From a virus (Duplodnaviria > Heunggongvirae > Uroviricota > Caudoviricetes): a stretch of 24,129 nt of DNA. A program made the translations under genes and the position numbers. Under the pieces are notes generated by a model. The model was given only the letters and a program-made list of their open reading frames with translations. It did no database searches and was not told the origin of the DNA. Each line of letters opens with the position of its first letter. Positions within the stretch are counted from its first letter, which is position 1. Shown piece after piece: positions 1-21,657 of the stretch. The DNA lies in the IMG/VR virus record IMGVR_UViG_2623620491_000014, positions 1 to 24,129 of that record. The stretch is one strand, 5' to 3'.

Positions 1-1158
1 ATGCTCACCGTTAAGCAGATTGAAGCAGCAAAGCCGAAAGAAAAACCATACCGCCTTCTCGATGGTAATGGCCTGTACCTTTATGTCCCTGTGTCAGGGA
101 AAAAGGTATGGCAGCTTCGCTACAAGATTGACGGTAAGGAGAAAATCCTGACCGTCGGAAAATATCCGCTTATGACTTTGCAAGAGGCAAGGGATAAAGC
201 ATGGACTGCGAGGAAAGACATCTCGGTTGGCATCGATCCGGTAAAGGCGAAAAAGGCTTCGTCTAACAACAATTCCTTTAGTGCGATTTACAAGGAATGG
301 TACGAGCACAAGAAGCAAGTATGGTCAGTAGGCTATGCAACTGAACTTGCCAAAATGTTTGATGACGACATTTTACCCATCATCGGCGGTCTCGAGATTC
401 TGGATATTGAGCCGATGCAACTGCTGGAAGTAATCCGCAGATTTGAAGATCGCGGTGCAATGGAGCGAGCCAACAAAGCCCGCAGAAGATGCGGCGAGGT
501 TTTTCGTTACGCTATTGTCACCGGAAGGGCTAAATATAACCCGGCACCTGACCTTGCAGACGCCATGAAAGGATACCGCAAGAAGAACTTCCCGTTCCTT
601 CCAGCAGACCAGATGCCTGCATTCAACAAAGCACTGGCAACATTTTCAGGAAGTATCGTATCGCTCATTGCGACAAAAGTTTTACGTTATACAGCCCTAA
701 GAACGAAAGAGCTTCGTTCCATGCTATGGAAGAACGTCGATTTTGAAAACAGGATTATCACCATCGACGCCAGTGTGATGAAGGGACGCAAAATTCATGT
801 GGTCCCGATGTCAGACCAGGTGGTTGAACTTCTCACTACGCTAAGCTCAATCACCAAACCAGTATCAGAGTTTGTTTTTGCCGGGCGCAACGATAAGAAG
901 AAGCCAATCTGCGAGAACGCGGTACTGCTTGTGATCAAACAAATCGGCTATGAGGGTCTGGAAAGCGGTCACGGATTCAGGCATGAATTCAGCACGATTA
1001 TGAACGAGCACGAATGGCCTGCTGATGCTATTGAAGTGCAACTGGCACATGCCAACGGCGGATCTGTGCGTGGGATTTACAACCATGCTCAGTATCTCGA
1101 TAAGCGCAGAGAAATGATGCAGTGGTGGGCGGACTGGCTTGATGAAAAGCCTGAGTGA
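1..1158 (+). CDS. int: Tyrosine integrase (P4-type, DUF4102-like N-terminal arm-binding domain)
   Basis: 385-aa ORF with ATG at pos 1. N-terminus MLTVKQIEAAKPKEKPYRLLDGNGLYLYV...GKEK fits the N-terminal domain of P4-family integrases. C-terminus has HGFRHEF and RGIYNHAQY, consistent with the catalytic His/Arg/Tyr region of tyrosine recombinases. Convergent with the tailspike, as in P22-like genomes. Confidence 0.9.
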   Translation: MLTVKQIEAAKPKEKPYRLLDGNGLYLYVPVSGKKVWQLRYKIDGKEKILTVGKYPLMTLQEARDKAWTARKDISVGIDPVKAKKASSNNNSFSAIYKEWYEHKKQVWSVGYATELAKMFDDDILPIIGGLEILDIEPMQLLEVIRRFEDRGAMERANKARRRCGEVFRYAIVTGRAKYNPAPDLADAMKGYRKKNFPFLPADQMPAFNKALATFSGSIVSLIATKVLRYTALRTKELRSMLWKNVDFENRIITIDASVMKGRKIHVVPMSDQVVELLTTLSSITKPVSEFVFAGRNDKKKPICENAVLLVIKQIGYEGLESGHGFRHEFSTIMNEHEWPADAIEVQLAHANGGSVRGIYNHAQYLDKRREMMQWWADWLDEKPE

Positions 1159-1329
1159 TCCACCTTAACAACTATCGAATAGCGAAGAGTCTTAAGTTTC
1201 TTATTTGATCGTAATATTAATATAATTATTCTTAGGAGGTTTTGTGATATACATCACATCAATGATTAATTATGAAAAAAAAACTTATTATGTGATAAAA
1301 TAAATTCTTTATCAAAATTAACAATATAA

Positions 1330-2394
1330 ATGAGTAAACTATATTCTATACAAATGCTTAGAGGTCTAGCAGCCGTTGCTGTTGTTATTGATCACGTCAC
1401 ACATTACATGCATCAATCATTTGATGGTGAATCGTGGTTGTATTCATCTAACATTTATAATGTAGGTGGTTTTGGTGTTGATCTATTCTTTTGTATTAGT
1501 GGATTCATCATGGTAATCACCACATACAACAGGCCAAGCGGGTTGTCACAATCGTTATCGTTCCTGAAAAAGAGATTTTTACGTATATACCCAACATATT
1601 GGTTTTATTGCATAATTACAATTACACTTCCATTAATTCTATATGGTAAAACGGATCTAATATCAAAATACGATTCACTGTTTTTATTACAAAGCTTTTT
1701 GCTTCTTCCAGCAAAAATTTCCGAAAAATCCTTTAGCCCATTTCTTGGGCAGGGTTGGACTTTGCAATATGAATTATATTTTTATATATTATTTGCGCTA
1801 ACAATTATCTTCTTCAAAGGATTCAAAGTTCCATTTTACTGCGCATTGTTAATGATATCGATGTTAATAATTTCACTCAACATAGATATTAATAGTTACG
1901 TAGATTATCTAGCGTCAAATACAATAATAATTGACTTTATTATGGGTATGCTTTCAGCATATTTTTATGTCAAGGTGAGCGCCAAGGGTATTTCAATAAA
2001 CATTAGAACTGGATTAGCATTGGTTGTTATTTTAATATCATTAATTTCATATATTATAATCAACAAATATCCAATTGATAGAATTATTGTTTTTGGGATT
2101 CCGTCTTTCTTCATCGTCACAATATTTTCGCTAATTAATGTTAACCCATGCAGCTTAACAAATAGAGTTATTATCCAGGCTGGAGAGGCATCATACACTA
2201 TTTATCTTGCGCATATGATTTTTATATGGACTGCAATAAAGTATTCTTATCTACTTAAATATCTTTATCCTGACGCAGCAATATTGCTTGTTTCTCTTGT
2301 TATATGCATTTTTTCATACTTGTTATATCTGTCTTTCGAAAAGCCGTTAACGAATAGACTGATGTCTATCCGAAAAAAACAAGCTCAACTCTAA
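1330..2394 (+). CDS. Acyltransferase family 3 integral membrane protein (O-antigen acetyltransferase-like serotype-conversion moron)
   Basis: 354-aa very hydrophobic ORF with N-terminal MLRGLAAVAVVIDHV and FFCISGF motifs typical of acyltransferase-3 (OafA/Oac-like) proteins. Very AT-rich codon usage unlike the rest of the window. Sits between int and tailspike, where P22-like phages carry O-antigen conversion genes. No obvious Shine-Dalgarno before the ATG at 1330; MLRGL at 1354 is an alternative start. Confidence 0.8.
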   Translation: MSKLYSIQMLRGLAAVAVVIDHVTHYMHQSFDGESWLYSSNIYNVGGFGVDLFFCISGFIMVITTYNRPSGLSQSLSFLKKRFLRIYPTYWFYCIITITLPLILYGKTDLISKYDSLFLLQSFLLLPAKISEKSFSPFLGQGWTLQYELYFYILFALTIIFFKGFKVPFYCALLMISMLIISLNIDINSYVDYLASNTIIIDFIMGMLSAYFYVKVSAKGISINIRTGLALVVILISLISYIIINKYPIDRIIVFGIPSFFIVTIFSLINVNPCSLTNRVIIQAGEASYTIYLAHMIFIWTAIKYSYLLKYLYPDAAILLVSLVICIFSYLLYLSFEKPLTNRLMSIRKKQAQL

Positions 2395-2402
2395 GCCATA
2401 AA

Positions 2403-2425
2403 AAGGAGCCTTTTCTTAAGGCTCC
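2403..2425. terminator. Hairpin between convergent acyltransferase and tailspike genes (possible bidirectional terminator)
   Basis: aggagcctt / ttctt / aaggctcct: 9-bp perfect inverted repeat with 5-nt loop, downstream of both stop codons (2392-2394 and 2435-2437). Flanking U-run is short (3 T on the minus-strand side). Confidence 0.4.
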
Positions 2426-2434
2426 TAAGATTAC

Positions 2435-4321
2435 TCAATTGACAATGACTTGACCTGAAGTGGTAATTTCAAACCAGAAATCCCCAGCCGTAGTAACTTT
2501 TGCTCCAGATGCAACCAGTTTGTCTGCTCCATTGATTGACCATGTAAAACTAGGAGATGAAGGATTTTCTCCTGATGTTTCTCCGGCCGATGAAACTAAA
2601 TTAACAATTGGAACTCCTGATATACTTTTATTAACTATCAAAATATATGTTGCAGTTCTTCTTGCTCCAGTGCTCGTTGCCAAGTTACCTACATGAACGA
2701 TAATCATCCCTCCATATGTTGTTTGATAGCCTTGAGTACTTCTTAGTGAACATATCTCTCTTGCTGCACCACCAGTGAAATTTATTGCTGGAAATAAGAT
2801 ATTATGATGCACCCAATCAACATAACCTCCATTAAATGTCTGTACACCTTTAGGAATGGTACAATTGTCTATGGTTGCAATCGCCCCAATACCATCAACT
2901 ATGATATCTGCTGAATTATTATCAGAAGAAGGGCTGGATTTACTATTTCTTATAGTTATATGGTTTTTAACTGAATTTAAACTTTGAACATGCAAAAGGT
3001 TCGCCCATCCGTCCTTTGACATATTATTTGCGTGAGCAAATGCACCTTCTATAACTACATTTTCATTATATCCTTCAGTATCGCTTGATCTCGCTGCAAA
3101 GCCAGCCCTACCATTACTTTCTGCTCCGCATGAAGTCATAACAAAACAATCACAGTTTCTTATGTAATGACCATGATTCACATTTGAATCAGAAGCTGTA
3201 GATATTGCTGAACAATAATTCATATAACCCCATTCCCAGCCATTATTTCCATTTGAGCTTGCATACCCTGAAGTTACTAAAGTGCTAGTATGTTGCTTGT
3301 ATATTGGATTATTGAGATAATCAAATTTAACTCCACTCGCCGAATTAGAACCAGCAATGATATTTCTAATATCAAGAATAAACGTATTACCAAAGTAAAA
3401 CCCATTCTGTGAGGCAGAAAATGCTTTTACTCTATCAATGGTTCCTCTACTTGCAAATTCATGGCTAATACCATGATACCCTCCGCGAGTAGCAAAATCA
3501 TTTAGTTTGAAATACTGTGTTGCTTTAGTGCTAGATGTGCTAGTTGTATTTTTTATTATAGACGCCCAACTTGGCAGATCTGGCCCTGCACGTAATTCTG
3601 ATGTTGAAATTCCTTTCCCTTTAATTTCTATACTATCAATCTGATCTGCCTCATTATTCCAATCATCATAATGGATTTCTGTTGATACTAACCTCACTCC
3701 CCTTGGAAGTTGCAATACACCGCCTTTTGTATTTGCATCAGGCAATGATGATTGTAACTGTGCAATCCCTTCGTTTATGCTTGCTCCTGTATCTACCAGC
3801 GGGTCCCCAAAGTCGTCTGAAGAAATTACCCTTTCAGCAAAAACCTCACGGGAATATTTATTTGTTCCCCCATTTGCTGCATATGGTCCAATTGATGCGC
3901 CAACTGTGCCTTTTCCATAATTAATACTTTCATCATAGCCAACAAGCCCAGCGCCTTCATTGCTATTCAATTCTCCGCGAAGTTGATCAGGGTCATACTT
4001 CAGCACATTAGGAAAATAAAACTGCTGCGCACCATATGCATCATAAACAGCCATAGAATGGCCTTGCACAGTTACGAACTTGGCAATCTGTCCGTTATAT
4101 ACCGGGTAACCAGCAGCGTTAATGATGATTGGTTGCGATACAGGAACGTGAGAGCCGTCTTCGTTCTCCACATAAACCTGAATCTGGTTTTCAGGATTTA
4201 CAGGGTCAGTGTCAATTTTACCGATATAAATTTTGCCATTGGCAACCGCTTTAAAAGAACGAGCCATAGTGAAGAGTTGCGAAGGCATGCTTACCACAAC
4301 ATTGGCTGTAATGTCTGTCAT
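2435..4321 (-). CDS. Tailspike protein: P22 gp9-type N-terminal head-binding domain fused to a distinct receptor-binding/enzymatic domain
   Basis: 628-aa ORF. N-terminal ~115 aa ([10 protein letters not shown]...[32 protein letters not shown]...[12 protein letters not shown]...NVLKYDPDQ) matches the conserved head-binding domain of P22/Sf6/HK620 tailspikes. The remainder is Ser/Thr/Asn/Gly-rich, consistent with a beta-helix. GGAG Shine-Dalgarno upstream of the ATG at 4321. Confidence 0.92.
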
Positions 4322-4380
4322 TTAATTTGCTCCAGATACAAGGAATCGCCGCAGCATGGCTACGGTGAATTTTGGGCATA

Positions 4381-4401
4381 AAAAACCCAGCCGAAGCTGG
4401 G
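4381..4401 (-). terminator. Rho-independent terminator downstream of ant
   Basis: On the minus strand: cccagc-ttcg-gctggg stem-loop followed by a T6 run, placed just 3' of the ant stop (4421-4423) and upstream of the tailspike start. Confidence 0.65.
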
Positions 4402-4420
4402 TCGTTGCGTTGGTTATCTG

Positions 4421-5323
4421 TCAGTAGTTATGTACTGAAGGAGGTAATTCTTTATTCTTAAGTCTCATCCATGCGGAAAGATTCGTTGGTCCGTCTGGCT
4501 CATTAATATCAACATCTCGTGTGTGGTTTATTAAAACGTCTCTCGCCATTCCGATAACATACGAGAATTCATGACCGTAGTCGTAGCATCTGCCGGAATA
4601 GTTCGATTGAATTTGTTTTAGCGCCGGATACAGTTCGCGGAATAATGCCTGTGAGCGGTTGGCATAATCCCATAACCATACAAGGCTGTTTGCTTCTTTT
4701 GCAGAAAGCTCGTTGGTTTTCTTCTCTTGTTTGCCGATAAATTCACCTTCAAGCACTACCCTGTGGATGTACTCTACGGCTTGCGGTATCTGAGATGCAT
4801 CAAGCTCTTCAATACTTTCCACATTGAAACGCTGATGAATCATTGCATAAGCTTCTGGGTACATTAGATGCTTTTTGCTGACTAGCATATTTACAGCATC
4901 ACGAAGCGGAGTCCTGTCATCAACAGATGTTTTCTTACGTGCATTTTCTGCCTTTCCCTTTGTCCAGTAGTCATGCAGTACAGTAAAGCATTCTTCCTGG
5001 TACTGAATCAGTTTATCACGGATGTCAGCACGAACTTTCTCAGGGTTGATGCTGAACAGCCATCCATTTAACTTCTTCAAAGGAAGGCAGAGTAGCTTAC
5101 GAAGCTTCCCATCAGCGGCAACCATGTTCATATGAACACAGTTGAATTTGCTAATCTGCTTCATGAGTTTTGTTTGCTGCGTTGACCAGCTCATTCCAAG
5201 GTTTTCAACGATTGGCTTCATCGCAACATATGCAACTCCGGCAGCCATGGCGGTGATAATTTGCTGACCGTTGAATGGTACGTAAGAGGTGTTCACTGCT
5301 TCTAAAATTGCTATACTATTCAT
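4421..5323 (-). CDS. ant: Antirepressor Ant (P22 immI)
   Basis: Protein from the internal ATG at 5323 ([47 protein letters not shown]...) matches P22 Ant (about 300 aa). GGAG Shine-Dalgarno precedes this ATG. The ORF-track extension to 5389 would run into arc and is not believed. Immediately downstream of arc as in P22. Confidence 0.88.
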
Positions 5324-5391
5324 GTTGGTTTTTCTCCACGGATTTACTGACAACCGAAGCCCTGACTGTTCCCGCAGTTGGGGCTTCAACT
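5315..5391 (+). ncRNA. sar: Putative sar-like antisense RNA, complementary to the ant translation-initiation region (boundaries approximate)
   Basis: In P22 a ~68-nt antisense RNA (sar) is transcribed across the arc-ant intergenic region, opposite to ant. Here that interval (5324-5391) is 68 bp and contains a composite stem-loop (gaagccc ... gggcttc, about 5356-5387). Placed by synteny only; promoter and exact ends not verified. Confidence 0.35.
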
Positions 5392-5553
5392 TTACGCGCC
5401 AATGCGCCCTTCCTTCTTAAAGCTTTCCATTACTCTATGATAAATCTCAGAGTTAACAGACCGACCATTCTCTTCCGCCACCTTGCGGACCAAATCCAAT
5501 ACTTCTTTAGGCCACCGCAAATTGAACTGCGGCATCTTGCTCATTCCTTTCAT
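5392..5553 (-). CDS. arc: Arc repressor (ribbon-helix-helix)
   Basis: 53-aa protein [53 protein letters not shown] is essentially the P22 Arc sequence. Start taken at the in-frame ATG at 5553; the ORF track's longer form starts inside the Arc operator. Confidence 0.93.
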
Positions 5554-5567
5554 ATTCACCTCACAAT

Positions 5568-5588
5568 ATAGGTCCACCGTGGACCTAT
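5568..5588. promoter_or_regulatory. Mnt operator (palindrome) in the Pant/Pmnt divergent promoter region
   Basis: ataggtccac-c-gtggacctat: perfect 10-bp arms around a central base, matching the P22 Mnt operator half-site (TAGGTCCAC). Confidence 0.8.
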
Positions 5589-5595
5589 TGAGAAT

Positions 5596-5616
5596 ATAGT
5601 AGAGTGCTTCTATCAT
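5596..5616. promoter_or_regulatory. Arc operator
   Basis: atagtagagtgcttctatcat: the 21-bp Arc operator sequence known from P22, between arc and mnt. Confidence 0.8.
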
Positions 5617-5643
5617 GTCAATACACTAACTTGGAGTGATGGC

Positions 5644-5895
5644 ATGGCTAGAGATGATCCGCACTTTAACTTCCGTATGCCTATGGAAGTAAGGGAGAAA
5701 TTAAAATTCAGGGCGGAGGCGAATGGGAGATCAATGAACTCCGAGTTGTTACAAATCGTCCAAGATGCTCTATCAAAACCATCGCCTGTGACTGGATATC
5801 GCGACGATGCAGAACGACTCGCTGATGAGCAGTCAGAGCTTGTTAAGAAGATGGTGTTTGATACGCTGAAGGATTTGTACAAAAAACCCACCTGA
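5644..5895 (+). CDS. mnt: Mnt repressor (maintenance of lysogeny; represses Pant)
   Basis: 83-aa ORF MARDDPHFNFRMPMEVREKLKFRAEANGRSMNSELLQIVQDALSKPSPVTGYRDDAERLADEQSELVKKMVFDTLKDLYKKPT, near-identical to P22 Mnt as I recall it. Divergent from arc-ant. Confidence 0.93.
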   Translation: MARDDPHFNFRMPMEVREKLKFRAEANGRSMNSELLQIVQDALSKPSPVTGYRDDAERLADEQSELVKKMVFDTLKDLYKKPT

Positions 5896-5904
5896 CGGTG
5901 GGTT
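5885..5904. terminator. Bidirectional rho-independent terminator shared by mnt (+) and the convergent cargo operon (-)
   Basis: aacccacc-tgac-ggtgggtt stem-loop flanked by A6 on the 5' side and TTTTATT on the 3' side, so it reads as hairpin plus U-run on both strands. The mnt stop codon lies in the loop. Confidence 0.65.
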
Positions 5905-5907
5905 TTA

Positions 5908-6327
5908 TTAGTGCTTGTATAGGTTGAACTCTCTATCAAGCCATATAACAAAAAATGTCGATCCAAGACGATAACCAACCATGGCTTTCAAATCATCAAA
6001 TCTAAAAGCCAAGAAATGATCTACGTCTTCCGTTATATGACTGGGGATACCTGCTTTAATTGCACCCCTTGCAATCTTCTCAAATCCAAGCTTATGCCTA
6101 CCTTGCTGCTTAATCTCTGCCCATGTTAGTTGACTTAATCTGTATAATTTATCAGCTAAGCCAGCTTTCTCATCTTTTTGGCATTTCGTTATGCAGTGAG
6201 AGCTTTGGATGTAACAGAATGAAAATTTCGGTTTCTTTTGATCTGAATTCCCCCCTGACTGCGGCCCTAACTTTAACTTACCTGTAGATTCAGCAGGGGG
6301 GATAATCCTTTTAGATTTTCTTGCCAT
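5908..6327 (-). CDS. Hypothetical 139-aa protein, candidate toxin/effector partner of the upstream DUF4065 gene (possible RelE/ParE-like C-terminal region)
   Basis: ATG at 6327 lies 4 nt after the upstream gene's TAA (TAA-CGAG-ATG), suggesting translational coupling. Basic N-terminus (MARKSKRIIPP...KKPKF), a C-x6-C-x3-C cysteine cluster, and a C-terminus ...KAMVGYRLGSTFFVIWLDREFNLYKH that resembles the GYRL/hydrophobic-strand/terminal aromatic-His pattern of RelE/ParE-fold toxins. The ORF-track start at 6402 is a TTG and overlaps the upstream gene; not believed. Confidence 0.6.
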   Translation of the reverse strand: MARKSKRIIPPAESTGKLKLGPQSGGNSDQKKPKFSFCYIQSSHCITKCQKDEKAGLADKLYRLSQLTWAEIKQQGRHKLGFEKIARGAIKAGIPSHITEDVDHFLAFRFDDLKAMVGYRLGSTFFVIWLDREFNLYKH

Positions 6328-6331
6328 CTCG

Positions 6332-6775
6332 TTAGTTAATCCGAGTTGCAAAGTACTCTGCCATCTCCTTAGAGCTAATTTCAGAACCACCAACACCCTC
6401 AATATAGTTTGATCTCCATGGTGACTCTTCGTGTGTCATGTTCCTCAGTTTCCAGGCAGAAAATTGCCCAAAAACATCCCAGACTTCTTCTAATAGCTCT
6501 AACTGTTCTTCGCTGAATTTTTCAGCATCAAAAGACTCTGGAGAAGGGATAGCGCCATTACCATATTGTTTATAACGGCGATAAAGCTCAGGGACAACAG
6601 GGCCATGCATCCAAGCTTCCATCTTATTCTGAAAAAGAGGCTCGCCAAGCAACGCCAATGAAAAACCCTGAGCATAGTAAACAAGCTTTTGTAATTTTAA
6701 ATTAGAGATTGTGTCACCGCTATCCTCGTCACACCGCGACAGGAAGTAGTCGGCGACATCAAAACAAGTAAGCAT
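6332..6775 (-). CDS. DUF4065 / Panacea-domain protein (SocA/GepA-like; candidate antitoxin or abortive-infection component)
   Basis: Protein MLTCFDVADYFL...ISNLKLQKLVYYAQGFSLALLGEPLF...EAWMHGPVVPELYRRYKQYG... carries the hallmark DUF4065 motifs (KLQKL.YYAQG, W..GPV.PE.Y). ATG at 6775 has a GGAGG Shine-Dalgarno 7 nt upstream; the ORF track's GTG at 6781 is less likely. Confidence 0.75.
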   Translation of the reverse strand: MLTCFDVADYFLSRCDEDSGDTISNLKLQKLVYYAQGFSLALLGEPLFQNKMEAWMHGPVVPELYRRYKQYGNGAIPSPESFDAEKFSEEQLELLEEVWDVFGQFSAWKLRNMTHEESPWRSNYIEGVGGSEISSKEMAEYFATRIN

Positions 6776-7149
6776 GAACACACCTCCATCTTGATAGCCA
6801 CAGCTAAGTATCCAACTATGTCAAATGTCATTTAATACTATAACAAAGCTATCAGCAATCCTTCGGAGGCTAACTTACAACCACTTTAGCGACATGTTTA
6901 AACCATTACGTTTCACATTTACTGCATTTTCGCCGAAGTTACCTATAAGGTAATGTCACATTTCCTGCAAGTTTCATGCAATGTTGAAAAGTGAGCTATT
7001 CACTTTTCTATGACACCAAACACCAAAAATAGCACTTTTTGCTAAATCATTCGTCCAAGTTGTGGATGGTTTGTCGTTGACACGTTTTCACACACCACTC
7101 CACCAATAAAGTATCATCTGGTATCCTGCTCAAAACTAAGGAGGTTGGC

Positions 7150-7539
7150 GTGAAGCAATTTCTTACTGCTATGTTCTTATTCATATCTTTTGGGGCTACA
7201 GCAGAGTGCTGGGTCGTTGGAGATATGCGCGGAATAAGCTATTCAGAACGAAATAATTTCCATCCGGAAGAAGATGGTTTTAGTGGAACATTCATCATTA
7301 AGACAAGCGGTGAAGATGCCAGCATCACATATTCTGGGACAGATGCGGGCGGCATGGCTTACAAAGCATTGTCTAAAAACTCCATCATAGGAATCGGCGC
7401 GAATGGCGAAACTCAACGCGTTATCGACTCATGGGTAATACATCCTACTGGAACAGTTTTAATGTCAAAAACCATTTCCGGTTATGGAAATATGGATTCA
7501 ACCAAAGCTTTTGTTGGAAAAGTAAAAAGAAAATGTTAG
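7150..7539 (+). CDS. Small secreted protein (moron) with N-terminal signal peptide; function unknown
   Basis: 129-aa ORF starting at GTG 7150 with a strong AAGGAGG Shine-Dalgarno 5 nt upstream. N-terminus MKQFLTAMFLFISFGATA-ECW looks like a Sec signal peptide; C-terminal Cys. Opposite orientation to the flanking late genes and preceded by a 368-bp AT-rich non-coding region. Confidence 0.7.
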   Translation: MKQFLTAMFLFISFGATAECWVVGDMRGISYSERNNFHPEEDGFSGTFIIKTSGEDASITYSGTDAGGMAYKALSKNSIIGIGANGETQRVIDSWVIHPTGTVLMSKTISGYGNMDSTKAFVGKVKRKC

Positions 7540-7563
7540 CGATTGAATCCAATTTCCCATACG

Positions 7564-9405
7564 TTACTGCTGTGTTGCCTCAGTAGCAAACAGCGGTCTG
7601 ATGGCATTCGCAGCGTTATTTATCGCTCTTTCATAGGCTGGTGTTCCTGCTTTGGTGTTTGCCAAACGAAGAAGCATATTCCTTGCTGCTTTGGACTCAT
7701 ACAAGCGCATCATTGCACCAAAACCAGCCTCAAGCCCCATTGATACGCCAAGAGTCGCAGTTGCGCCAATCGTCCTTATCCTGTTGGCTTGCGATTGCCC
7801 CGTCTGAGTTACTACATTTGCGGTGTCTGACCTTGCTGTTTGCTGTAGAACTTCATGAAGAGCATCAAGCTCTTTCATGTGCTTTCCAGAAAAAATAGTG
7901 TTGTAAATTTCACCGCCTGACTGAGATTTCAGCTTATTAACTTCCGTGATGAACTTGGCTGGAGAGTCACCGGCCTTTTCCGCTATTTTGCTGACGTAAG
8001 CTGCACGCATAGCATCTTTCCCCTTATCATCCAATGCGCTCCAGATTCGTTTCACGTCAGATGGTTTTCTGCTTAATACAACGGTATTTATAAGTTCAGG
8101 GCTGGATTCACTACTTGCCTTATTGAGCTTGTTAGCAATGTTTTTATTAAGCACCTTATTATAAACGTTTGCATAATCGGAATTTGCTTTAAGGTATTTT
8201 GCTGCGTCTGAAGCACCGAGGTTTTTAGCAACTGCGTTACGAAGGTCTTTTGACATTGCATTCTCTACCATATTGGTAGCTGCTTTTGCCTGGTTGGGGA
8301 AGACCATAGCATCTCCCTGAACATTAGATCTAAATGCCGTTCTGTGCTGACGCAGGAGATCAAACGTAACATCCAAATCAGTTGCAGGGTTTGCTAATTC
8401 TTCACGTAGGTTACGCAAGGATGTAAGCAGGCTTTGATTGGCAGACGTCCCAAGCCGTTCCTGTCTTGCGATCGCTGTATTCAGAGCATTCATGGTATTT
8501 GTGGTATCAACTGCGGCATTACCCATTTTATTGGTGACGTCATTGATAACAGCGCCAGCGGCATCCTTCCGTCCCCTTAACGTGGTGGTCAGAGATTTCA
8601 CCACATCATCAGGGTTGTACTCACCAAAACGGTCAAAATAATTACTTACCAGCTTACTACGCGTTGCATATTGCTCCGCTCGCTTTGAGCCTGTCCCGAG
8701 CAAAGCCCCCTCGGCATCCTGAGTAAGGCCGCGAGTGAAAGCATTTTTCGGCGTGATTACATCAGATGTCATTGGTGTCACGCCCATCGATTCTGATGTG
8801 GCAATTTTTTTCGCCACTTCTGGCGAAATATCGCCTTTTATAGCCGTCATTCCACGCCCTATTCCCTTTGCTGCTGCGGAAAGAACACCCTGAGCGGCAA
8901 GGTTGACTCCGGCATTTTTAGCTGCATTTTGTGCGAAATCGCCTTTCTGATTTGCGGCCTCTGCCAGTGATCCAATAGCCATGCTTCCTGCCGTTCCAAC
9001 TCCTGGAACTAAATACCCACCAATTGTTTCACCGGCTTGCGCGTAGGGGTCTGTCGGTCTGTCTACTGGACGATAAACATCATCCAAAACCTTGGGTCCA
9101 CCAAGCCCCTGACTGATTGCATTAATCAGACTTGCGCCGCCCTGCAATACGTCAAATGGTATGTTCACCAGACCACGACCAGCCTGTTCTGCAATTTGCC
9201 CTGCACTTTGACCACCAGTGAGCCAATCGCCAGCTTGTTGCATCAATGATGGTTCTTCCCGTGTTGGTGCATTATTGGCCTGATTAACTGTTTGTTGCTG
9301 AACAGCCTGACCAGCAAAATACTCATCAATGGCGATGCCAATATCTTCGGTGCTCGTACCATCAGGAAAGGTAAATGTCTTACCGTTTGCAGTTACTTTC
9401 ATCAT
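7564..9405 (-). CDS. Ejection (internal virion) protein, P22 gp16 homolog
   Basis: 613-aa ORF at the gp16 position and size (P22 gp16 about 609 aa), Ala/Gly/Gln-rich. Start overlaps the upstream gene's stop (ATGA). Confidence 0.85.
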
Positions 9406-10808
9406 TCCACCGTAAATTGAATGCCTGATTTTGAGGTATACGATCCAACCTGATTCCGTGGTTCTCCTGAAGGTGTCGAATCTTGTGCTGGCGCTGCGTC
9501 AGTATTCATTGACATATACCGCTTAACGGCACTCCCCAATGATTCACCTTTTTTAACATCCAACCCCAATATCTGACCGCCATTACGCGATTGTCCAGGG
9601 TTGCCATTCGCGCTCATCCACTCGGCTTTAAACTCATTAAACTGCGCGTTTCGTCGCTCAAGGTTTGCCATTGCATCAAGCCATCTTGCGACCGTCTCAG
9701 GGTTATCCATGTCAGTTGGTGCACCCTGCCGAACGATCTCAACGTCTTTATCCGTTGCGGGGCCGGGAGGTAGGAATTTAAGAACCTGACTGTTAACAAG
9801 GGCATTTTGGCGGATGCGCAAATCACGCAATGTTGTATCGCTTCCGGTAAGTTTTGCGAACATGTTCTGTGCGTTACCGAACAAACCTGTCGTTGGTTTT
9901 TCTGCTCTGAACTGTTGAGCAAGCGCACTCATAGAATTGGCTGAGTTTGATGATGCTGTGGCATTGTTTACAGCTGTCTCGATGCCTTTTTCCATGTTTA
10001 CTGACAGCTTAGGTGCTTCGCTAATCAACTGCTGAGCCTTTTCCTGCGCTTGCTGCATCTTAAACCCGAACTCTTGCTGATCCAGAGCCAAGCGTTGTGC
10101 TGCGATATTGTGCCCAGTCATTGCTGACTGATAGGAAAGGTTTTGGCCTCTCGCCTGAAGTGCCTCGCCAGCCTGATTGCTGCGGATTGTCTCTGCAAGT
10201 TTCCCGCGATCAATCTCACGACCAGCCATCTTGTCCTGAACATTGAAGTAATCAATTGGACCAAGAGCAGCCATTCCAAGGTGATCAACAAACTCACCAA
10301 ATCCTGAAGGATTCTGCTGATACATCTGAGCAACGCTGTTAGGGTCAACACCGACGCGAGTCAGTTCCTTGGCGTTGTTTTGCAGCCATGATTGCATTGC
10401 TTCTGGAGACGATGACGCAAGGCGTGCGCCAGCCGCTAAGGTGCCGATAGAATTACGCTGGTCTTCATCAATGAATCCCATGCCTTTACGAACTGATTCA
10501 ATCTGGTCTGGATATTGAGTAGCCAACTGACGCAAAGCACCGCGATCACCAGACGCATAAGCATTAGCGTATGCCTGCTGAAATTCTTTCTGCCGCTGAG
10601 CCTGCTTTTCCTGCTGAAACACCCCCGCAATACCTGAAAGGCCTTGCAAAGCAGTCAGCCCAACATTGTTAGCGCCTGAACGCTCAATATCATTGTTCTG
10701 CCTGATAAACTGAAGCGTATTGCCGATGTCATTTACGCTCGGAGCGTTTGAGTTTACGCCGCCGATACCAGCTAACAATCCGCCATTTGATCCTTGCCAA
10801 GTAGCCAT
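9402..10808 (-). CDS. Ejection protein, P22 gp20 homolog
   Basis: 468-aa ORF at the gp20 position and size (P22 gp20 about 471 aa); Gln/Ala/Asn-rich, low-complexity like ejection proteins. Confidence 0.85.
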
Positions 10809-10817
10809 GATTACCCC

Positions 10818-11510
10818 TTAAAACAACGAGCCAAGCAGACCAAGACCAGCACCGATACCAGCACCCCACGGAGTTGATAGCTCGAGAGCGCTGGCTATGC
10901 CACCACCCAAAAGCGCACCGGATGCAGCACCACTAACCCCCTGCTGCAATGCTGACGGTCGGTTGGCGTTTGCCGCAGCCAGCGCCGCGCTTTGCTGTGA
11001 AATCTGACTCATGTTGTTGGCATATGTTTGCCCGGCGTTTGCCTGCCCCTGAAGAGCGCCAAGACCGATATTTGCCAGATTCTGGTAGTTGTTCATCTGA
11101 CCAGATAGCCATTGCTGACCAAGCGTTGGTGCGATTGTTGCTAACTGATTACTGGTTGCGGTGGAACCCAATCCACCCGTTGCTTCCGCTGCCGCCAGAC
11201 TCTGATAGCGAGCCTGACTTGCAAGGTCTTTATACTGCTGAGAGTTGTAATACTGATTAAGTGCCTGCCCCTGACCTTCTAAACTGGAAAGATTCTGAAG
11301 CTGGTTAACATACTGCTCCGCAAGCGGCGTGAACGGAGCAAGGTTTTTCATGATCGTCTGCCACTGCTGATTTTGCAGGTCTGCGGCATACTTCTGAGCT
11401 TCTGCTGCATACTTTGCGCTTTTATCAGAGCTGCCACCTTTCCCGCCTTTTTCAGGGCAATAAGGTTCCTCGCCGCGCAGTTTTCTGCCCAGCTTAAATG
11501 CATATAACAT
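10818..11510 (-). CDS. Ejection protein, P22 gp7 homolog
   Basis: 230-aa ORF (P22 gp7 is 229 aa) with a Gly/Ala-rich hydrophobic C-terminus; GGGAG Shine-Dalgarno upstream. Confidence 0.85.
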   Translation of the reverse strand: MLYAFKLGRKLRGEEPYCPEKGGKGGSSDKSAKYAAEAQKYAADLQNQQWQTIMKNLAPFTPLAEQYVNQLQNLSSLEGQGQALNQYYNSQQYKDLASQARYQSLAAAEATGGLGSTATSNQLATIAPTLGQQWLSGQMNNYQNLANIGLGALQGQANAGQTYANNMSQISQQSAALAAANANRPSALQQGVSGAASGALLGGGIASALELSTPWGAGIGAGLGLLGSLF

Positions 11511-11512
11511 GG

Positions 11513-11968
11513 CTATCTCCCGTGATTCAGGAAGTCGATTAGTTCTTCGCGTGTAGCACTGTAAAATGTCACGTCATCCACGCCTTTGAAGTATTTCTTG
11601 ATGGTTCCTACACGCTTAAGGCCAATCATTGCGCAGTACATCTGCCCGTGGCGGAATTTGCGTGCAGCGAACGATGTGACGCACTGAACGGTGGTGTTAG
11701 TCAGAATGTATCGCCAGAACGCCAGCCCGATTTCCTTGCTGAAGCCGCGAATCTCTGGCAGGTACATGGCGTGGCAATCGAATGTCAGCGGCTGAATCTC
11801 CTGATAGTAAACAATGCCGCCGAACTGCCCGTGCACGTTCACCTCAAAGTAACGGCAATCAGGTTTGTAGTCGTATCCATCACCGTTGTTGCTCCCGGCG
11901 ATAATGTCAGGGTGATTTCCTACTGCTTCGATCAGGTCGATGTTTCGCGTTGGTTTGAACTGAATCAT
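11513..11968 (-). CDS. P22 gp14-like virion assembly/ejection-associated protein
   Basis: About 151-aa ORF in the gp14 slot between tail needle and gp7. ATG at 11968 overlaps the tail needle stop (ATGA). Identity by synteny and size. Confidence 0.7.
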   Translation of the reverse strand: MIQFKPTRNIDLIEAVGNHPDIIAGSNNGDGYDYKPDCRYFEVNVHGQFGGIVYYQEIQPLTFDCHAMYLPEIRGFSKEIGLAFWRYILTNTTVQCVTSFAARKFRHGQMYCAMIGLKRVGTIKKYFKGVDDVTFYSATREELIDFLNHGR

Positions 11969-12816
11969 CACTGCTCCGCAATGATTTTGATGGTTGTGGC
12001 AGTAAACGCCGCCCCATTTGACTGAATGGTTAACGTACTGCCATTTGTGGCAAGAAAGCCGTCTTTATCCACGCTGAAGAACGTAGCTAACAGGATGTTG
12101 TCGGTTGTTGTCGCCGAGTTGCGACTGCTTACCAGTGTGTCATGAACAGAACCGGAAAATGTTAGCTGCATTGACCTGTTGGCGGTTCCGCTGGGCCACG
12201 TCCCGACAATCGACAGCTTGAAGAACAAGGTTTTGTTCTCGTTGAACACAACCATCTTGTTGTTAACAGTGTCGAAGAATGGTGCCAACGTCCCGGATGA
12301 CGGCGTGAGCGTTTTCAGCAGGCTAACAAGGTTGGTCGGCGCTGTCGGGATGGTTACTGATACGCCAGAGTAAACAACCTCTGACTTCTTGCGTTTGGTT
12401 GCATACTCCAGAGCATCAATGCGCGTTTCATGGTCTGAAACCTGCGACTCCAGCGACTGAACTCTGGTATCAAGCGACGCAATATCGCTTTCATTCTGAG
12501 CGATTCGCGTTTCATGGTCCTGAAGAGTTGATTCTGCCTGGCTGATTCGCTCCTCATGATTAACAAGCGTTGCTTCCGCAGCAGAAATTCGCTGCTCATG
12601 GTCAGCGAGAATCACATCCTGCTCATCGTTCCTGACTTGTGCGTCATAAGCGCCCTGTCCGGCCTCGTTGGCCTTGTTAGCCACGTTACCAACATCAGTA
12701 CCCTGTGCGATAACGTAAAGCAGATACGACTGCGAGAAGATATTGCGTGGAAGGACTGATGTGTCGAGCCGTGTAGCCTGAATGATTACCGGAACATTGA
12801 GATTCGAATCCGCCAT
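11968..12816 (-). CDS. Tail needle (P22 gp26 homolog) with extended C-terminal knob domain
   Basis: 282-aa ORF. N-terminus [43 protein letters not shown]...[19 protein letters not shown] matches the gp26 N-terminal and coiled-coil region, with heptad-like HE.RI repeats. About 50 aa longer than P22 gp26, with a beta-rich C-terminus as in Sf6-type needles. Confidence 0.88.
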
Positions 12817-14234
12817 TACTCAATCCTTATCTGGCAGCCAGACAGAGTTACAGGTGACTTCGTGATAACGCGCAATTTGAAGCCAACATTTTTCCTGATG
12901 CGCCCTACTCGCTTCCACAAAACGCGTTTGTCGTAAACGAACGGTTCATTCTGCTCAATCATCTGCTCACGACCGTAATTTATGCCGTCAGTGGTTGCAG
13001 AGAGAAAAAGGCGGTCAGCGTACTGAGCTACGCCAGTTGAAGATTCAACCTCAAGGTCGAACACTCTTGCGTTATCCGCTTTGAACAGCGGAGTAAACAG
13101 CAGGTGTTCCTGTTGAAGGCTATACTGACTGCTGATATCGAACTGCAATTTCCCGGTCACGGACTCCAGCTTATCGCCGCACGTTATCTGATTGCCTTCG
13201 TAAATGAAGTCGATAGCGCGGTACACATCGTCATACAAGCCAGTTTTCAGCACACACCATTGCGGACCATTGGCGCTTGAAGATGCGTCGTACACAAGGA
13301 CGTGACGCGGAAGATGGATAATCAGCAACTCATGCGCATCAAATCGCAAAGACTCCATCACACCATCAGCCAGTTCATCAGCAGTGTAGGAGCGGAGTAT
13401 TTTCTCAATGCTCGCGCTGGCGATTGGTGACACCTGACCGGAGCCGATGATGTATACAGACGGCGCACCTGTTGCCGGATTGCTGATGAACGCATACGAG
13501 TCAGCAAACGGCGTTTTGCAGTAGGTTCCGGCAATGCCTTTCTGCACCATCAGCGATGGCTGTGCGACATACAAAGCAGCACCAACGGTGGTTGCACCAG
13601 TCAGGGAGAAATATTCAATCGTCGATGAACCAAAGCAGACGATGAAGTCTCGCCATGTGCCGATACCGATGATGCCGTCCGGCTGCGATTCTGCGCGATA
13701 TTGTGCGCTGTAACGGTCAGGATGCGATTCGTCTTCAAGGTCAGTGATAAACCATGAATCAGTGCCGTCTTTTGACCACGCATAACGACCACGTAAGCGC
13801 GTAATGTCACGAACCGAACCTAACTCATACTGCGTGAATCCGCTGTCTGTAGGCCAGTTTGAGACGGTTTTAACCGTGCCATCATAGCGATACTCGAAAA
13901 GTTGACCATTAACGCCTACCGCCTGCGATGTCCGACCATGCGCCATTGATACGCGACCACTTCCGGCAACATCACCGACTTCACTTTCTCCTTTGTACAG
14001 CTTGCCGCCACACACGCGATAAACAGCATTCTGCGCCATGTTGTACTCGACGCCGCGCGATACACCGTTCACATCAGAACGTTTGGCAATGCCCGGGAAT
14101 GAGCGAAGATATCCGCTGCTGTTGAGGATTTCTTTGGGTGTAGCCAACATATTCACTGGCAGATAGTCGATATAGTCGGCGTTTCTAAAGTCTTTGCCGA
14201 CACCTTTCATAAGCGGAAGTTGCTGAATAGGCAT
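12816..14234 (-). CDS. Tail hub protein, P22 gp10 homolog
   Basis: 472-aa [52 protein letters not shown]..., highly similar to P22 gp10 (472 aa) as recalled. GAGGTG Shine-Dalgarno upstream. Confidence 0.92.
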
Positions 14235-14243
14235 TTATTCACC

Positions 14244-14705
14244 TCACGTACTCGGATCATCTTTCTCGATGTAAAACCGATTCCACGTAAACGCGCTTTT
14301 TAACCCCGCCCCGCGAGGCATATCATTTCGCCGCTCAAGTGGTGGTATTTTGGTTAAAGCGATGCAGATTGTCTGATATGCACTGTCAGCAGCGGTAAGG
14401 AGAGCGTCTGACGGCTGAATGACGTTATCCATGCACACTTGCACAGCGAGTTTCAAAGCGACGCCATCATTTGCCCATGCAGGGATACCTGAATCATCGT
14501 CAGGTAACGGCATGATGCCGTTTTCTGTATCAGCAAACTGATATCCAAGCTCGATACCTTTAGCCTGCCATGCTGCCATCATGTCTTCGAGGTCATTAAT
14601 GGCATCTTCAATTGCCTGAGGGTCAGCATCTGTCAACGTGGCATTGGAATACAGCCCGGCTTTTCGTAAAGCCTTTAGAACGAGATCACCCTTCGTTTTC
14701 GCCAT
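14244..14705 (-). CDS. Tail accessory / head-completion protein, P22 gp4 homolog
   Basis: 153-aa ORF in the gp4 slot between coat and gp10; acidic protein. Identity by synteny and size. Confidence 0.8.
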   Translation of the reverse strand: MAKTKGDLVLKALRKAGLYSNATLTDADPQAIEDAINDLEDMMAAWQAKGIELGYQFADTENGIMPLPDDDSGIPAWANDGVALKLAVQVCMDNVIQPSDALLTAADSAYQTICIALTKIPPLERRNDMPRGAGLKSAFTWNRFYIEKDDPST

Positions 14706-14874
14706 CTTCTTCCGCCTTAGCCACTTTTTGCTTCGTTGCGGTTTCTTCAGGAGTTTTTACCCAACCTTTTTTCAGGTGAGATTTAACTTCTTCGTCATCA
14801 ACAATGATGTAATCGACAGCAAACTGACCACAGGTGATCATGTTGCCTGGCTTATAGAGCATTGTTCGTGCCAT
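14686..14874 (-). CDS. Small hypothetical protein (62 aa) between coat and gp4
   Basis: In-frame ATG at 14874 with a GGGAGAAG Shine-Dalgarno upstream. Overlaps the gp4 start by 20 nt. Acidic C-terminus (EEDGENEG). No family recognised. Confidence 0.5.
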   Translation of the reverse strand: MARTMLYKPGNMITCGQFAVDYIIVDDEEVKSHLKKGWVKTPEETATKQKVAKAEEDGENEG

Positions 14875-14915
14875 TGTCTTCTCCCAATAAAAATGGGGCC
14901 GAAGCCCCACCAAAA

Positions 14916-16169
14916 TTACTGCCCGGCAATAACGATGCCCGTATATTCAGGAACAAGTACAGAGCAACCGTACAGAGTGGTGAAACGAGCAGTGGTTACG
15001 CCTTTGATGTGGTCGAAGGCGTAAGACATGATCAGCGTAGCGCCCTGCTCGGTGGTTGCTGTCATTACCTGTGGCCCCTGACCAGTCGGGAATGCCAGTT
15101 TGCCGTACATCAGTTCAACAGAACCATCAGCCCAGAACAGGTTAGCCGGTGCTGCGTTCTTGTTGAGAATGGTGATTGCTGCTGATTCTGCCGGTTTGGC
15201 ATCGACGTTTGCATATGGACGACTCGCAACATCAGTATTTTCAACAGGGAGAATCTTTGGAGAAATTGTTACGGTAGTTCCGCTAACAGCCAGAACACGG
15301 AATACCTGCGGTTGCCCGGTGGTATCTTTTGTGATCTGGTGTACGGAATTCACACCGGCAATGGTGAACGCATCACCAACCTGCAAGCCAGATGCAGATA
15401 CCGTAATAGTCCCCTGTCGGTTATCAACTGGCATACCATTTGAATCTTTCGCTTCAACCTTGTGTTCAGGTTGGCCTGATACTGTCAAGGATTCAACGCT
15501 TCCTTTCGGTAATCGACCAGAAATATCGGTCTTGTAGCTATCAAAGGAAGCAACCTGAGGGATCTGCGCTTTTTCGTATGCTGTCAGGGTTGCGCCCTGA
15601 GCATAGGCACGGTGACCAAGCTCGCCAGCAAGGTCTTTGTAGTTGAAGGGGTTCCAGAAAGAGCGACGGTTGATACCCTGAGGTACACCAATCGCCGTCA
15701 TGGTGGCATCAATATCTGCCGCACCATTCCACAAGGCAAGGCCCCGTGAGCCATTTTCTGAGGCAGGAATTGCGACCACGTTAGTAGCACGCTGCGTGAC
15801 CATGGAAATCAGGTCAGAGTCAATCTGTGCAGCAAGGCGCATACCTGCGGCTCGACCAGCTTCAGTTTTATGTTCCGGGTCACGCATTTCACGCGCATCC
15901 AGAGTGTACAGAATGTTTTTCGGCTCCTTGAACACAGAAGGAACAAGGCGCTGAACCAGTGCTGTTGGCGTTTTGCCGCTGAGGTCTAGGCCTTCCTCAA
16001 TGTTCATGTGGTAATGCTGCGGACGATACAGAACATCACCTGCTCGCTGCATTGCTGTATCACCGGGACGGAATTTTTTAGCGTTACGGGAAACTACGCA
16101 GGCGGCCTCAAAGCCTTCAACGTAGTTTTCGAACATGATTTCAAGGTCTTTTGCTAATTGGTTAGGCAT
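14916..16169 (-). CDS. Major capsid (coat) protein, P22 gp5-type
   Basis: 417-aa ORF directly downstream of the scaffold gene; size and position match P22-like coat proteins (about 420-430 aa). GGAG Shine-Dalgarno upstream. Confidence 0.88.
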   Translation of the reverse strand: MPNQLAKDLEIMFENYVEGFEAACVVSRNAKKFRPGDTAMQRAGDVLYRPQHYHMNIEEGLDLSGKTPTALVQRLVPSVFKEPKNILYTLDAREMRDPEHKTEAGRAAGMRLAAQIDSDLISMVTQRATNVVAIPASENGSRGLALWNGAADIDATMTAIGVPQGINRRSFWNPFNYKDLAGELGHRAYAQGATLTAYEKAQIPQVASFDSYKTDISGRLPKGSVESLTVSGQPEHKVEAKDSNGMPVDNRQGTITVSASGLQVGDAFTIAGVNSVHQITKDTTGQPQVFRVLAVSGTTVTISPKILPVENTDVASRPYANVDAKPAESAAITILNKNAAPANLFWADGSVELMYGKLAFPTGQGPQVMTATTEQGATLIMSYAFDHIKGVTTARFTTLYGCSVLVPEYTGIVIAGQ

Positions 16170-16187
16170 GCTTAATGCTCCGATAGG

Positions 16188-17081: not shown

Positions 17082-17171
17082 TTGTTACCCCTGTTTACTC
17101 GATGTTCAGCCCATCGGAAGGCAATAGGGTGCCAGGCCTCATAAAGACAGCCATTGCACGTTATGGGTTAA

Positions 17172-20869: not shown

Positions 20870-21335
20870 GGTTGAATAGCTCCTTGATACGAGAGCGTCG
20901 CTTATCGCGATCTCCCTTATCAGGTGTCACGTCTTCAACTTGCGACTGCTCTTTGAGGCCCAAATCACGGGCGATGATATTAGCGTTGAGAAGGTCAGCG
21001 GCTGCGCCAGAGAATTTCTGGTCGTAGATGATGTCTTCCGCTCGTGATGTGACGTCAGAAAAACCTTCCATTGACCGGAAGGTTCCCCATGTTTGCCTGG
21101 TGATATCAAGGAAGGTACACAATCCTGAAATAGTCATGGCTCGCATCTTAGGGACATTAGCCTTAATTATTTCTCCCTGATATGAAAATACCTTACCCTC
21201 CCATAGCGGGTTATCATCAGCCCACTCGAAGTATTCACAACAAGCAGCCCACAGCGCCTCAGGCGATTCGAATTTAGGGTTTCGCCCATGACTACTGCGG
21301 GCCTCCCAAAATCGGTTGCCCTTTGGTGCTGCCAT
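20847..21335 (-). CDS. Terminase small subunit, P22 gp3-type
   Basis: 162-aa [41 protein letters not shown]..., same length as and recalled as similar to P22 gp3. Directly upstream of TerL. Confidence 0.9.
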
Positions 21336-21414
21336 ATTGATTATTTCCCTTCTGCTTGCTTATCCCATTCATCGCGGAATTTGGATGGGTTGTCGAAACC
21401 TTGAGTTGCCATGT

Positions 21415-21657
21415 TTATGCTCCGGTAGTGAACAGGTCTAACGCTTCCTTCGATTTACGCACCGCTTCGATAGTGCGGGTCGTGATATCTGAATTAGCGC
21501 CGCCTGACTGGAAGTGAATTTTGAATAGCTCAAGCTTCAACTCGTCAGTACCAATGAACTGAAATGCTTCTTCTGCGGCTGCGTTCTGGTTCATGACCAG
21601 CTTGTAAATCTCTAACTGGAATTTCTGTTCTTCAGTCATGGGAATAATCTCTGCCAT
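21415..21657 (-). CDS. Small hypothetical protein (80 aa), same slot and size as P22 orf80
   Basis: 80-aa ORF with ATG start, between the lysis cassette and terminase genes. No function recognised. Confidence 0.6.
   Translation of the reverse strand: MAEIIPMTEEQKFQLEIYKLVMNQNAAAEEAFQFIGTDELKLELFKIHFQSGGANSDITTRTIEAVRKSKEALDLFTTGA

Follow-up and report, generated by a model that had tools for sequence, protein, structure and literature searches.

The window analysed here, a 24,129-nt stretch of DNA, is the left portion of a P22-like (Lederbergvirus-type) prophage that is integrated at the tRNA-Arg gene argW. It starts with the gene for an IntS-type tyrosine integrase (int, positions 1–1158, plus strand), which is followed by an AT-rich spacer (1159–1329), the gene of a 354-residue AT3 acyltransferase (1330–2394, plus strand), and a 40-bp spacer between convergent stop codons that contains a hairpin (2404–2426). 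The tailspike gene (2435–4321, minus strand, 628 residues) can be divided into a P22-type head-binding domain (codons 1–113, 3983–4321) and a C-terminal part, referred to below as the C-part (codons 114–628 and the stop codon, 2435–3982). An island of low G+C content (GC) at 1159–3980 extends from the end of int through the acyltransferase gene and the C-part. The island is probably a host-range and lysogenic-conversion cassette of the type found in phage Sf6, of foreign low-GC origin, and set between two conserved arms of the prophage: int on the left and the head-binding sequence on the right.

Composition and boundaries of the island

The GC of the island is 0.347, compared with 0.485 for the rest of the window (4322–24129). 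The sliding GC profile is not flat: the 2,822-bp segment with the lowest GC of the 24-kb sequence begins at position 1151 (0.346), whereas segments of the same length outside the island have a mean of 0.487 ± 0.028 and a minimum of 0.421. Separating the island from the rest raises the log-likelihood by 95 nats. On the left, likelihood segmentation puts the change point at 1164/1165, six bases past the int stop codon at 1158. The right boundary lies inside the tailspike gene and is clearest at synonymous sites. The in-frame GC at third codon positions (GC3) is 0.407 in codons 1–113 and 0.227 in codons 114–628; in bins of forty codons it is 0.38–0.45 up to codon 120 and 0.15–0.32 thereafter, with the maximum-likelihood change point at codon 128. 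The earlier note, made from the sequence alone, had described an AT-rich island reaching from the int stop to about codon 115 of the tailspike, and this description was accurate to within two codons. Its statement that the flanks have balanced GC applies to the structural genes beyond about 8.3 kb, where a GC of about 0.50 is first reached, but not to the segment 3561–8274 with the tailspike N-domain and the immI region, which is intermediate (0.427).

The boundaries coincide with the ends of homology to P22-like phages. The int DNA (GC 0.479, GC3 0.528; Pfam Phage_integrase, Phage_int_M and Arm-DNA-bind_3) is 97–98% identical to that of Sf6, N7 and Kapi1, and the similarity ends at 1144 in Kapi1, 1149 in Sf6 and 1201 in N7. 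The left mosaic junction lies in the AT-rich spacer, which has a GC of 0.222. On the right, homology restarts at 3984 in Sf6 and N7 and at 3981 in Kapi1, which corresponds to codon 113/114. Position 3983 is the final base of codon 113, and the Pfam Head_binding domain (PF09008) spans residues 1–113, matching its whole 113-position profile with 224.9 bits against a cutoff of 24. The head-binding DNA (GC 0.431, GC3 0.407) is 88% identical to Sf6 (3984–4336), 95% to N7 (from 3984) and 91% to Kapi1 (from 3981). The tailspikes of these three phages show no similar fall in GC from the N-part to the C-part. The island DNA had no match in 50,697 phage records (blastn, words down to 11), and one of 5,426 complete E. 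coli genomes matched it, in near and distant search modes alike.

The two genes of the island differ in total GC, which is 0.315 in the acyltransferase and 0.381 in the C-part. This difference is due to amino-acid composition at codon positions 1 and 2, and the GC3 values are close (0.291 and 0.227). The acyltransferase gene stands out from the surrounding phage genes (GC 0.47–0.52, GC3 0.40–0.64), as is expected of a moron. The relative synonymous codon usage (RSCU) of the acyltransferase and the C-part is correlated with r = 0.78, whereas the correlations of the island genes with the tailspike N-domain, int and the structural genes range from -0.00 to 0.13.

The acyltransferase, the hairpin and the tailspike

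The acyltransferase belongs to the Pfam family PF01757 (Acyl_transf_3), which it matches with 119.9 bits against a cutoff of 31; residues 5–328 align to positions 2–323 of the 326-position profile. It also matches PHROG 3333, 'O-acetyltransferase', with an E-value of 6e-58, and has no match in NCBIfam. The functional motifs of AT3 proteins are R/K-X10-H in transmembrane segment 1, RXXR in the first cytoplasmic loop, and V-X-X-F-F-X-(I/V/L)-S-G-(F/W/Y) (PMC9558356). All three are present, as R11-X10-H22, R82-F-L-R85 and V50-D-L-F-F-C-I-S-G-F59, respectively. The protein is strongly hydrophobic, and no second domain was found in the Pfam scan; it is predicted to be a stand-alone AT3 integral-membrane protein, an architecture that in Oac comprises about ten transmembrane helices and lacks an SGNH domain. 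We regard it as a putative O-antigen O-acetyltransferase and its gene as a candidate for lysogenic conversion; the terms 'O-antigen-modifying' and 'serotype conversion', which the earlier note had used, derive from the protein family and the position of the gene. The promoter of the gene presumably lies within 1159–1329, where promoter-like hexamers occur at 1272–1301 (with TG) and 1318–1345.

The acyltransferase forms a clade with proteins from Enterobacter and E. coli prophages (59–67% identity), and its next relatives are at most 43% identical. The Oac protein of Sf6 was not recovered by tblastn with the acyltransferase at E ≤ 1e-5, and it scores 61 bits with a hidden Markov model built from the acyltransferase homologues, compared with 379–392 for members of the clade. 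Judged by these scores, the two proteins are not orthologues. The tree of the clade is star-like, with all pairs 60–70% identical. The N-terminal 120 residues or so of each pair are 88–98% identical, and identity is 32–50% in alignment columns of about 180–240 and at the C-terminal end. Such a split would fit an acyl-donor half that is conserved and an acceptor-specific half that diversifies; recombination within the gene would fit it as well.

The hairpin at 2404–2426 is the only one in the 40-bp spacer. It reads AGGAGCCTTAAGAAAAGGCTCCT and then TTTTATGG on the minus strand, and its G+C-rich stem has nine pairs, five of which are G-C. The T-run is on the tailspike strand, and the hairpin resembles an intrinsic terminator for the tailspike (late) transcript. 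It probably also stops the acyltransferase transcript.

The C-part has no match in Pfam, PHROG or NCBIfam. The AlphaFold2 model (mean predicted local distance difference test, pLDDT, of 87; predicted template modelling score, pTM, of 0.84) contains a short neck (codons 114–140 approximately), a right-handed parallel beta-helix, and a C-terminal beta-sandwich. Foldseek matched the model, with a probability of 1.00, to the tailspikes of Acinetobacter phage P1 (PDB: 6e1r), Sf6 (PDB: 4urr and 2vbk) and HK620, and to TSP2 of CBA120, to which the C-part is 8–17% identical in sequence, too little for a transfer of catalytic residues. The only solved chain with sequence similarity in a profile search of PDB sequences is 6e1r, over the C-terminal 110 or so residues; the other matches of that search were mostly to N-terminal adaptors of the aligned homologues, outside the region of the C-part. 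The C-part is taken to be the receptor-binding and presumably polysaccharide-cleaving part of the protein.

Homologues of the C-part are rare, with 45 among 5.8 billion proteins. A profile search of contigs found one locus in 185,579 species genomes and six in viral contigs; these loci are too few for a formal co-phylogeny, and the contigs were examined individually. The C-parts occur on several different N-terminal adaptors or in different contexts (P22 Head_binding, Tail_spike_N (PF18668), the T7 tail-fibre N-domain, and a P2-like baseplate context), and the position of the junction follows the adaptor. The neck of the window tailspike (3844–3982, codons 114–159 approximately) is 52–65% identical in amino acids and about 71% in DNA to those of L020, L023, L024 and L006, which have P22-type and Tail_spike_N-type adaptors, and is dissimilar to the tailspikes with a T7 adaptor (L005) and of the P2 type (L022). 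The similarity to L005 begins at about codon 137–143. The pattern points to at least two alternative recombination points, one at codon 113/114 and the other at about codon 137–143. On most temperate backbones the homologous C-parts have a GC3 of 0.29–0.36, compared with 0.40–0.54 for their own N-parts. The C-parts of a P2-like phage (L022, 0.51) and of another viral contig (L017, 0.55) have host-like values, and the AT-richness therefore reflects history rather than a requirement of the fold.

The layout of the locus is the same as in Sf6: int, a putative oac promoter, oac, an annotated terminator, and a convergent tailspike. The similarities extend to the backbone type, the argW site, int (97% DNA identity), the parallel beta-helix of the tailspike C-part, and an AT3 acyltransferase, predicted to be stand-alone in the window, which in Sf6 is the O-antigen acetylase Oac (OacA). 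The Sf6 tailspike, an endorhamnosidase, is the product of gene 14, and shares the head-binding DNA described above. In contrast, Sf6 has no detectable DNA similarity to the window over 1150–3983, and the tailspike folds are alike at merely 11–13% sequence identity. The Sf6 island is also only weakly AT-shifted, with a GC of 0.418 in oac and 0.444 in the C-part, compared with 0.315 and 0.381 in the window.

Relatives of the pair in other prophages

The nearest non-self relatives of both proteins are encoded by Enterobacter prophages, rather than by different lineages with host-like GC, and there, too, the genes are of low GC relative to their hosts (AT3 0.34–0.35, C-part 0.42–0.44, backbones 0.53–0.57). 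The nearest relative of the C-part is in Enterobacter ludwigii (L005, GCA_043951995.1), where it is paired with a member of the AT3 clade in the same convergent arrangement. The amino-acid identities to the window are 79% for the C-part and 60% for the AT3 protein, and the DNA identities are 72.9% for the C-part and 74.0% for the alignable 5' part of the AT3 gene. The spacer between the two genes contains the same hairpin stem, GGAGCCT/AGGCTCC, whereas the spacers of Sf6, L006, L020 and L023 have hairpins that are unlike it. The N-terminus of the L005 tailspike is a T7 tail-fibre domain (PF03906), and the neighbouring genes encode terminase and lysis proteins. The C-part family flanks the AT3 gene in three of the five independent contexts of the clade: the window prophage, E. 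ludwigii and Enterobacter mori. The shared codon usage, the related pair in L005 and the rarity of the C-part bear out the proposal of the earlier note that the acyltransferase and the C-part were acquired together from a lower-GC source. Both genes most probably entered the backbone together, as one piece with the hairpin.

The L005 tailspike (7024–9176) is split: a 270-residue open reading frame (ORF) encodes the T7 tail-fibre N-domain, and the C-part is in a second ORF that overlaps the first in a different frame. Either a sequencing error causes the split, or the gene is a frameshifted pseudogene of a prophage in decay. The 60% identity of the AT3 proteins was considered as a contradiction of co-inheritance and rejected, since all pairs of the clade have a conserved N-terminus and a variable C-half. 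In codon usage the island is similar to a P22-like prophage in Providencia rettgeri (RSCU r 0.77–0.86). Providencia-type phages were dropped as donor, since any AT-rich source fits and identity to the C-part of the Providencia tailspike is only 38%.

A sister lineage provides evidence that such a pair can be exchanged as a block. The P22-like locus L020, from a food metagenome, and the tape-measure-encoding locus L023 share an unbroken 3.1-kb stretch with 75.5% identity. It runs from inside the tailspike gene through the genes of a 343-residue acyltransferase and a Peptidase_S24 protein, and ends before int; no further DNA similarity was found within the two loci outside this block. Conversely, L023 and L024 (Enterobacter hormaechei) have backbones that are 82–84% identical in DNA, but neither their C-parts nor their modifiers agree, L023 having an acyltransferase and L024 gtrABC. 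The modifier is seen to travel with the receptor-binding domain in two shallow lineages. Of the suggestion in the earlier note that receptor specificity and serotype conversion form one exchangeable module, the exchange of an unbroken block across phage types stands; the module is, however, facultative, and its partners reassort at deeper divergence.

The slot between tailspike and int also holds other kinds of genes. The gtrABC cassette of L024 (7950–10772) has a GC of 0.48 in gtrA, 0.47 in gtrB and 0.36 in gtrC; the AT-rich gene is the serotype-specific gtrC, and it adjoins the tailspike. In L031 and in the P. rettgeri prophage L032 (7885–8946, GCA_020681225.2), an EpsG-family membrane protein (PF14897) is encoded between tailspike and int. 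The L032 prophage is P22-like, and its tailspike is of the same C-part family (38% identity). We take the EpsG-family proteins to be Wzy-like polysaccharide polymerases; as such they would raise to three the kinds of putative O-antigen modifier found there. In the metagenome contig L028 (6001–9033), the AT3-SGNH gene next to the acyltransferase of the clade (61% identity) is broken into two ORFs. In L028–L030 there follow about 3 kb without long ORFs and another AT3 gene, and the flanks encode chemotaxis and EAL-domain proteins. The region may be a degraded prophage end that has kept only the modifiers.

The E. coli prophages L008–L012 encode an acyltransferase of the same clade (64% amino-acid identity), convergent with a tailspike, and the pair is at the prophage end beside holin and endolysin genes. 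Their tailspike has no detectable similarity to that of the window at E ≤ 1e-5. We take their layout to resemble that of the phiV10/epsilon15-type Uetakeviruses, as a provisional assignment.

The island is part of a larger block that was exchanged more recently. The prophage of E. coli EC05 (L001, NZ_CM169495) is 99.56% identical to the window over 1–4336, and past this position it is 71–95% identical in patches or not at all. The similarity ends 15 bases upstream of the tailspike start codon, and this second mosaic junction (4322–4336) is more recent than the junctions of the island. The latest exchange thus involved a 4.3-kb block, which is bigger than the island. The EC05 prophage is without ant, has a different immI region, and its structural genes are 71–95% identical or unmatched. 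Positions 1–9394 of the window are 100% identical to a contig of GCA_001637795.1 (L026), in which the integrase gene is directly downstream of yfdC. The gene order argW-intS-acyltransferase-tailspike is found in both EC05 and L026. An identical acyltransferase is present in five contigs, all of which have the same tailspike. Like the block shared with EC05, this speaks for a joint origin of the two genes.

Beyond the second junction, the window continues with the antirepressor gene ant (4421–5389, minus strand), which precedes the immI region, and then with genes for ejection, tail, head and terminase proteins of the P22 type. The immI ('ant moron') region encodes a 149-residue SocA/Panacea-domain protein (6332–6781, minus strand; Pfam PF13274, PHROG 1281) and, downstream of it, a 164-residue ORF (5908–6402, minus strand; PHROG 8366, function unknown) that overlaps it by about 70 bases. 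The two genes at 5908–6781 resemble a toxin paired with a Panacea-type antitoxin. Between the SocA gene and that of a gp16-like ejection protein there is a 129-residue ORF (7150–7539, plus strand; GC 0.41), oriented opposite to the surrounding late genes. It belongs to PHROG 2651 (function unknown) and had no match in the Pfam and NCBIfam scans.

Origin and function of the cassette

Phages with a demonstrated modifier provide the closest functional parallels. Acetylation of O-antigen blocks the phage's own tailspike in Sf6, by Oac, and in BTP1, by GtrC (PMC9558356, PMC4413052). In BTP1, the gtr modifier gene adjoins and converges with the gene of the tailspike whose activity it blocks (PMC4413052). 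BTP1 and P22 resemble the window prophage in being P22-like and in combining an exchangeable C-part with a head-binding domain that is conserved (PMC2629481). Their modifiers are the GtrC acetyltransferase of a gtr operon in BTP1 and gtrABC glucosylation in P22, whereas that of the window is a predicted stand-alone AT3 protein. On the P22 map, the cassette lies across attP from int, and hence at the opposite prophage end. The function of the BTP1 gene is demonstrated, whereas the window acyltransferase is assigned its putative role by analogy.

We propose that the window tailspike is a chimera, the residues 1–113 of which would dock onto the P22-type tail, and those from about 114 onward would recognise a surface polysaccharide, most likely O-antigen, and probably also cleave it. 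The AT3 protein expressed from the prophage would most likely O-acetylate the same polysaccharide that the tailspike targets. By analogy with the phages above, the modification would alter the serotype and shield the lysogen from its own tailspike and from phages of like specificity. Homologous recombination in the conserved arms, namely the 3' end of int and the head-binding sequence, would move the piece among P22-like phages, and recombination in the neck would put a related pair on phages with other tail adaptors.

Several observations weigh against this proposal. The partners of both genes vary. In E. mori, the member of the AT3 clade adjoins a C-part that is only 39% identical, and an additional AT3-SGNH gene is present; in L008 the neighbouring tailspike is unrelated, and in L028–L030 there is none at all. 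The C-parts found alongside the clade are accordingly 79% identical, 39% identical, or unrelated. Relatives of the C-part (38–55% identity) are followed by a different AT3 protein (AT3-B, 28% identity), by two AT3-SGNH genes, by gtrABC, or by an EpsG-family gene, and there is no modifier beside them in a P2-like myovirus, nor where another large ORF follows the tailspike. The AT3 proteins of the window and L005 are the least similar pair of their clade (60%), and its star-like tree speaks neither for nor against co-inheritance with the C-part. A similarly AT-rich codon usage is possible for any pair of genes with AT-rich sources. The promoter scan found 17 sites, compared with 14.3 ± 3.6 expected from shuffled sequence, a chance-level count that is due to the AT-richness of the sequence. 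The link of both proteins to O-antigen is drawn from protein family and position, and capsule, peptidoglycan and further glycans are among the substrates that AT3 proteins acylate (PMC9558356).

The alternative that survives best is that of two independent acquisitions at adjacent hot spots, a swap of the receptor-binding domain at the head-binding junction and a separate moron insertion downstream of int, each of them AT-rich. Adjacency and like composition would then be properties of the slot and of O-antigen-related genes, and not of co-transfer. The variety of partners listed above fits such a history, as does the unrelated cargo of the slot in relatives (oac in Sf6, a 108-residue ORF in N7 and a small ORF in Kapi1). 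The left junction, moreover, varies among these phages, whereas the right one is fixed, and conversion cassettes are mobile on their own (PMC2629481). However, the pair in L005 recurs on a backbone with a T7-type N-terminus and in another genus, with the same hairpin stem and near-equal DNA divergence of the two genes. A C-part family as rare as this one adjoins three of five AT3-clade contexts, the island genes share their codon usage, and the unbroken C-part-to-AT3 block of the sister lineage crosses phage types. We consider two acquisitions unlikely.

Less probable still is a target of the pair outside O-antigen, for instance capsule, colanic acid or enterobacterial common antigen; the lock-and-key logic would hold for such a glycan as well, but 'serotype conversion' in the O-antigen sense would be a wrong label. 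The best fold match of the C-part, which is also the only structure with sequence similarity, is the tailspike of the Acinetobacter phage vB_ApiP_P1 (PDB: 6e1r), and the tailspikes of Acinetobacter phages are mostly capsule depolymerases. The range of surface glycans on which AT3 proteins act is in keeping with this alternative. On the other hand, the characterised P22-like tailspikes among the fold matches and in the cited papers (P22, Sf6, HK620, epsilon34 and BTP1) all use O-antigen, and the C-part is partnered in other loci by gtrABC (L024), a classic O-antigen modifier, or by the EpsG family (L032), a likely one.

It is very improbable that the low GC arose in place, through membrane-protein composition, selection for AT (for example H-NS-dependent control), or drift of a fast-evolving domain: the AT3 gene does have the GC at first and second codon positions expected of a hydrophobic protein (0.335 and 0.318), and the modifier is the lowest-GC gene of the locus in L005, L006, L008, L024 and L032, but the shift at synonymous sites is abrupt and lies inside one gene, at a homology breakpoint and domain boundary (codons 113–128), the fold is encoded with host-like GC3 in L022 and L017, the tailspikes of Sf6, N7 and Kapi1 show no comparable drop, and the island is nearly without matches in the databases searched.

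The proposed cassette of receptor-binding domain and modifier is of a kind already known from Sf6 oac, P22 gtr and BTP1 gtrC; the pair in the window is rare and new to this kind. Phage epsilon34 and its relatives have a conserved head-binding domain (amino acids 1–115) with unrelated C-parts, and conversion cassettes that are mobile between phage types (PMC2629481). The receptor-binding domains of tailspikes have been exchanged between Lederbergviruses, Uetakeviruses, Kutterviruses, Gamaleyaviruses and other genera (PMC10408124), and the C-part family of the window likewise occurs on several N-terminal adaptors. That study treats the receptor-binding domain alone, with the downstream modifier as a complication for serotype prediction (PMC10408124). 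In the literature that we found, we did not meet an explicit statement that domain and modifier are co-transferred as one piece, which nevertheless follows naturally from what is described there. More tentatively, the domain, modifier and terminator may be a discrete unit that moves whole among P22-like, T7-adaptor and tape-measure temperate phages, through recombination on one side in the tailspike neck and on the other downstream of the modifier. The hypervariable C-half of the AT3 protein would then track the glycan of the tailspike, and Escherichia would have acquired the pair in the window recently from a low-GC pool, possibly a Morganellaceae-like one.

The principle of such cassettes is textbook knowledge from Sf6, P22 and BTP1, and to this extent the gain is incremental. 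The newer part is the evidence that units of domain plus modifier cross tail architectures. The C-part family, for which Pfam, PHROG and NCBIfam offer no model and the solved structures no close relative, would be a new specificity. These observations are relevant to the prediction of host serotype from prophage tailspikes, for which the modifier is the noted complication (PMC10408124), to tailspike and tailocin engineering, and to the origin of rare O-antigen variants. The C-parts of tailspikes set which O-serogroup can be infected, and the adjoining modifiers set the serotype that the lysogen displays. If the two do cross phage types together as a unit, one recombination event would give a phage a new host range and its lysogen the matching protection.

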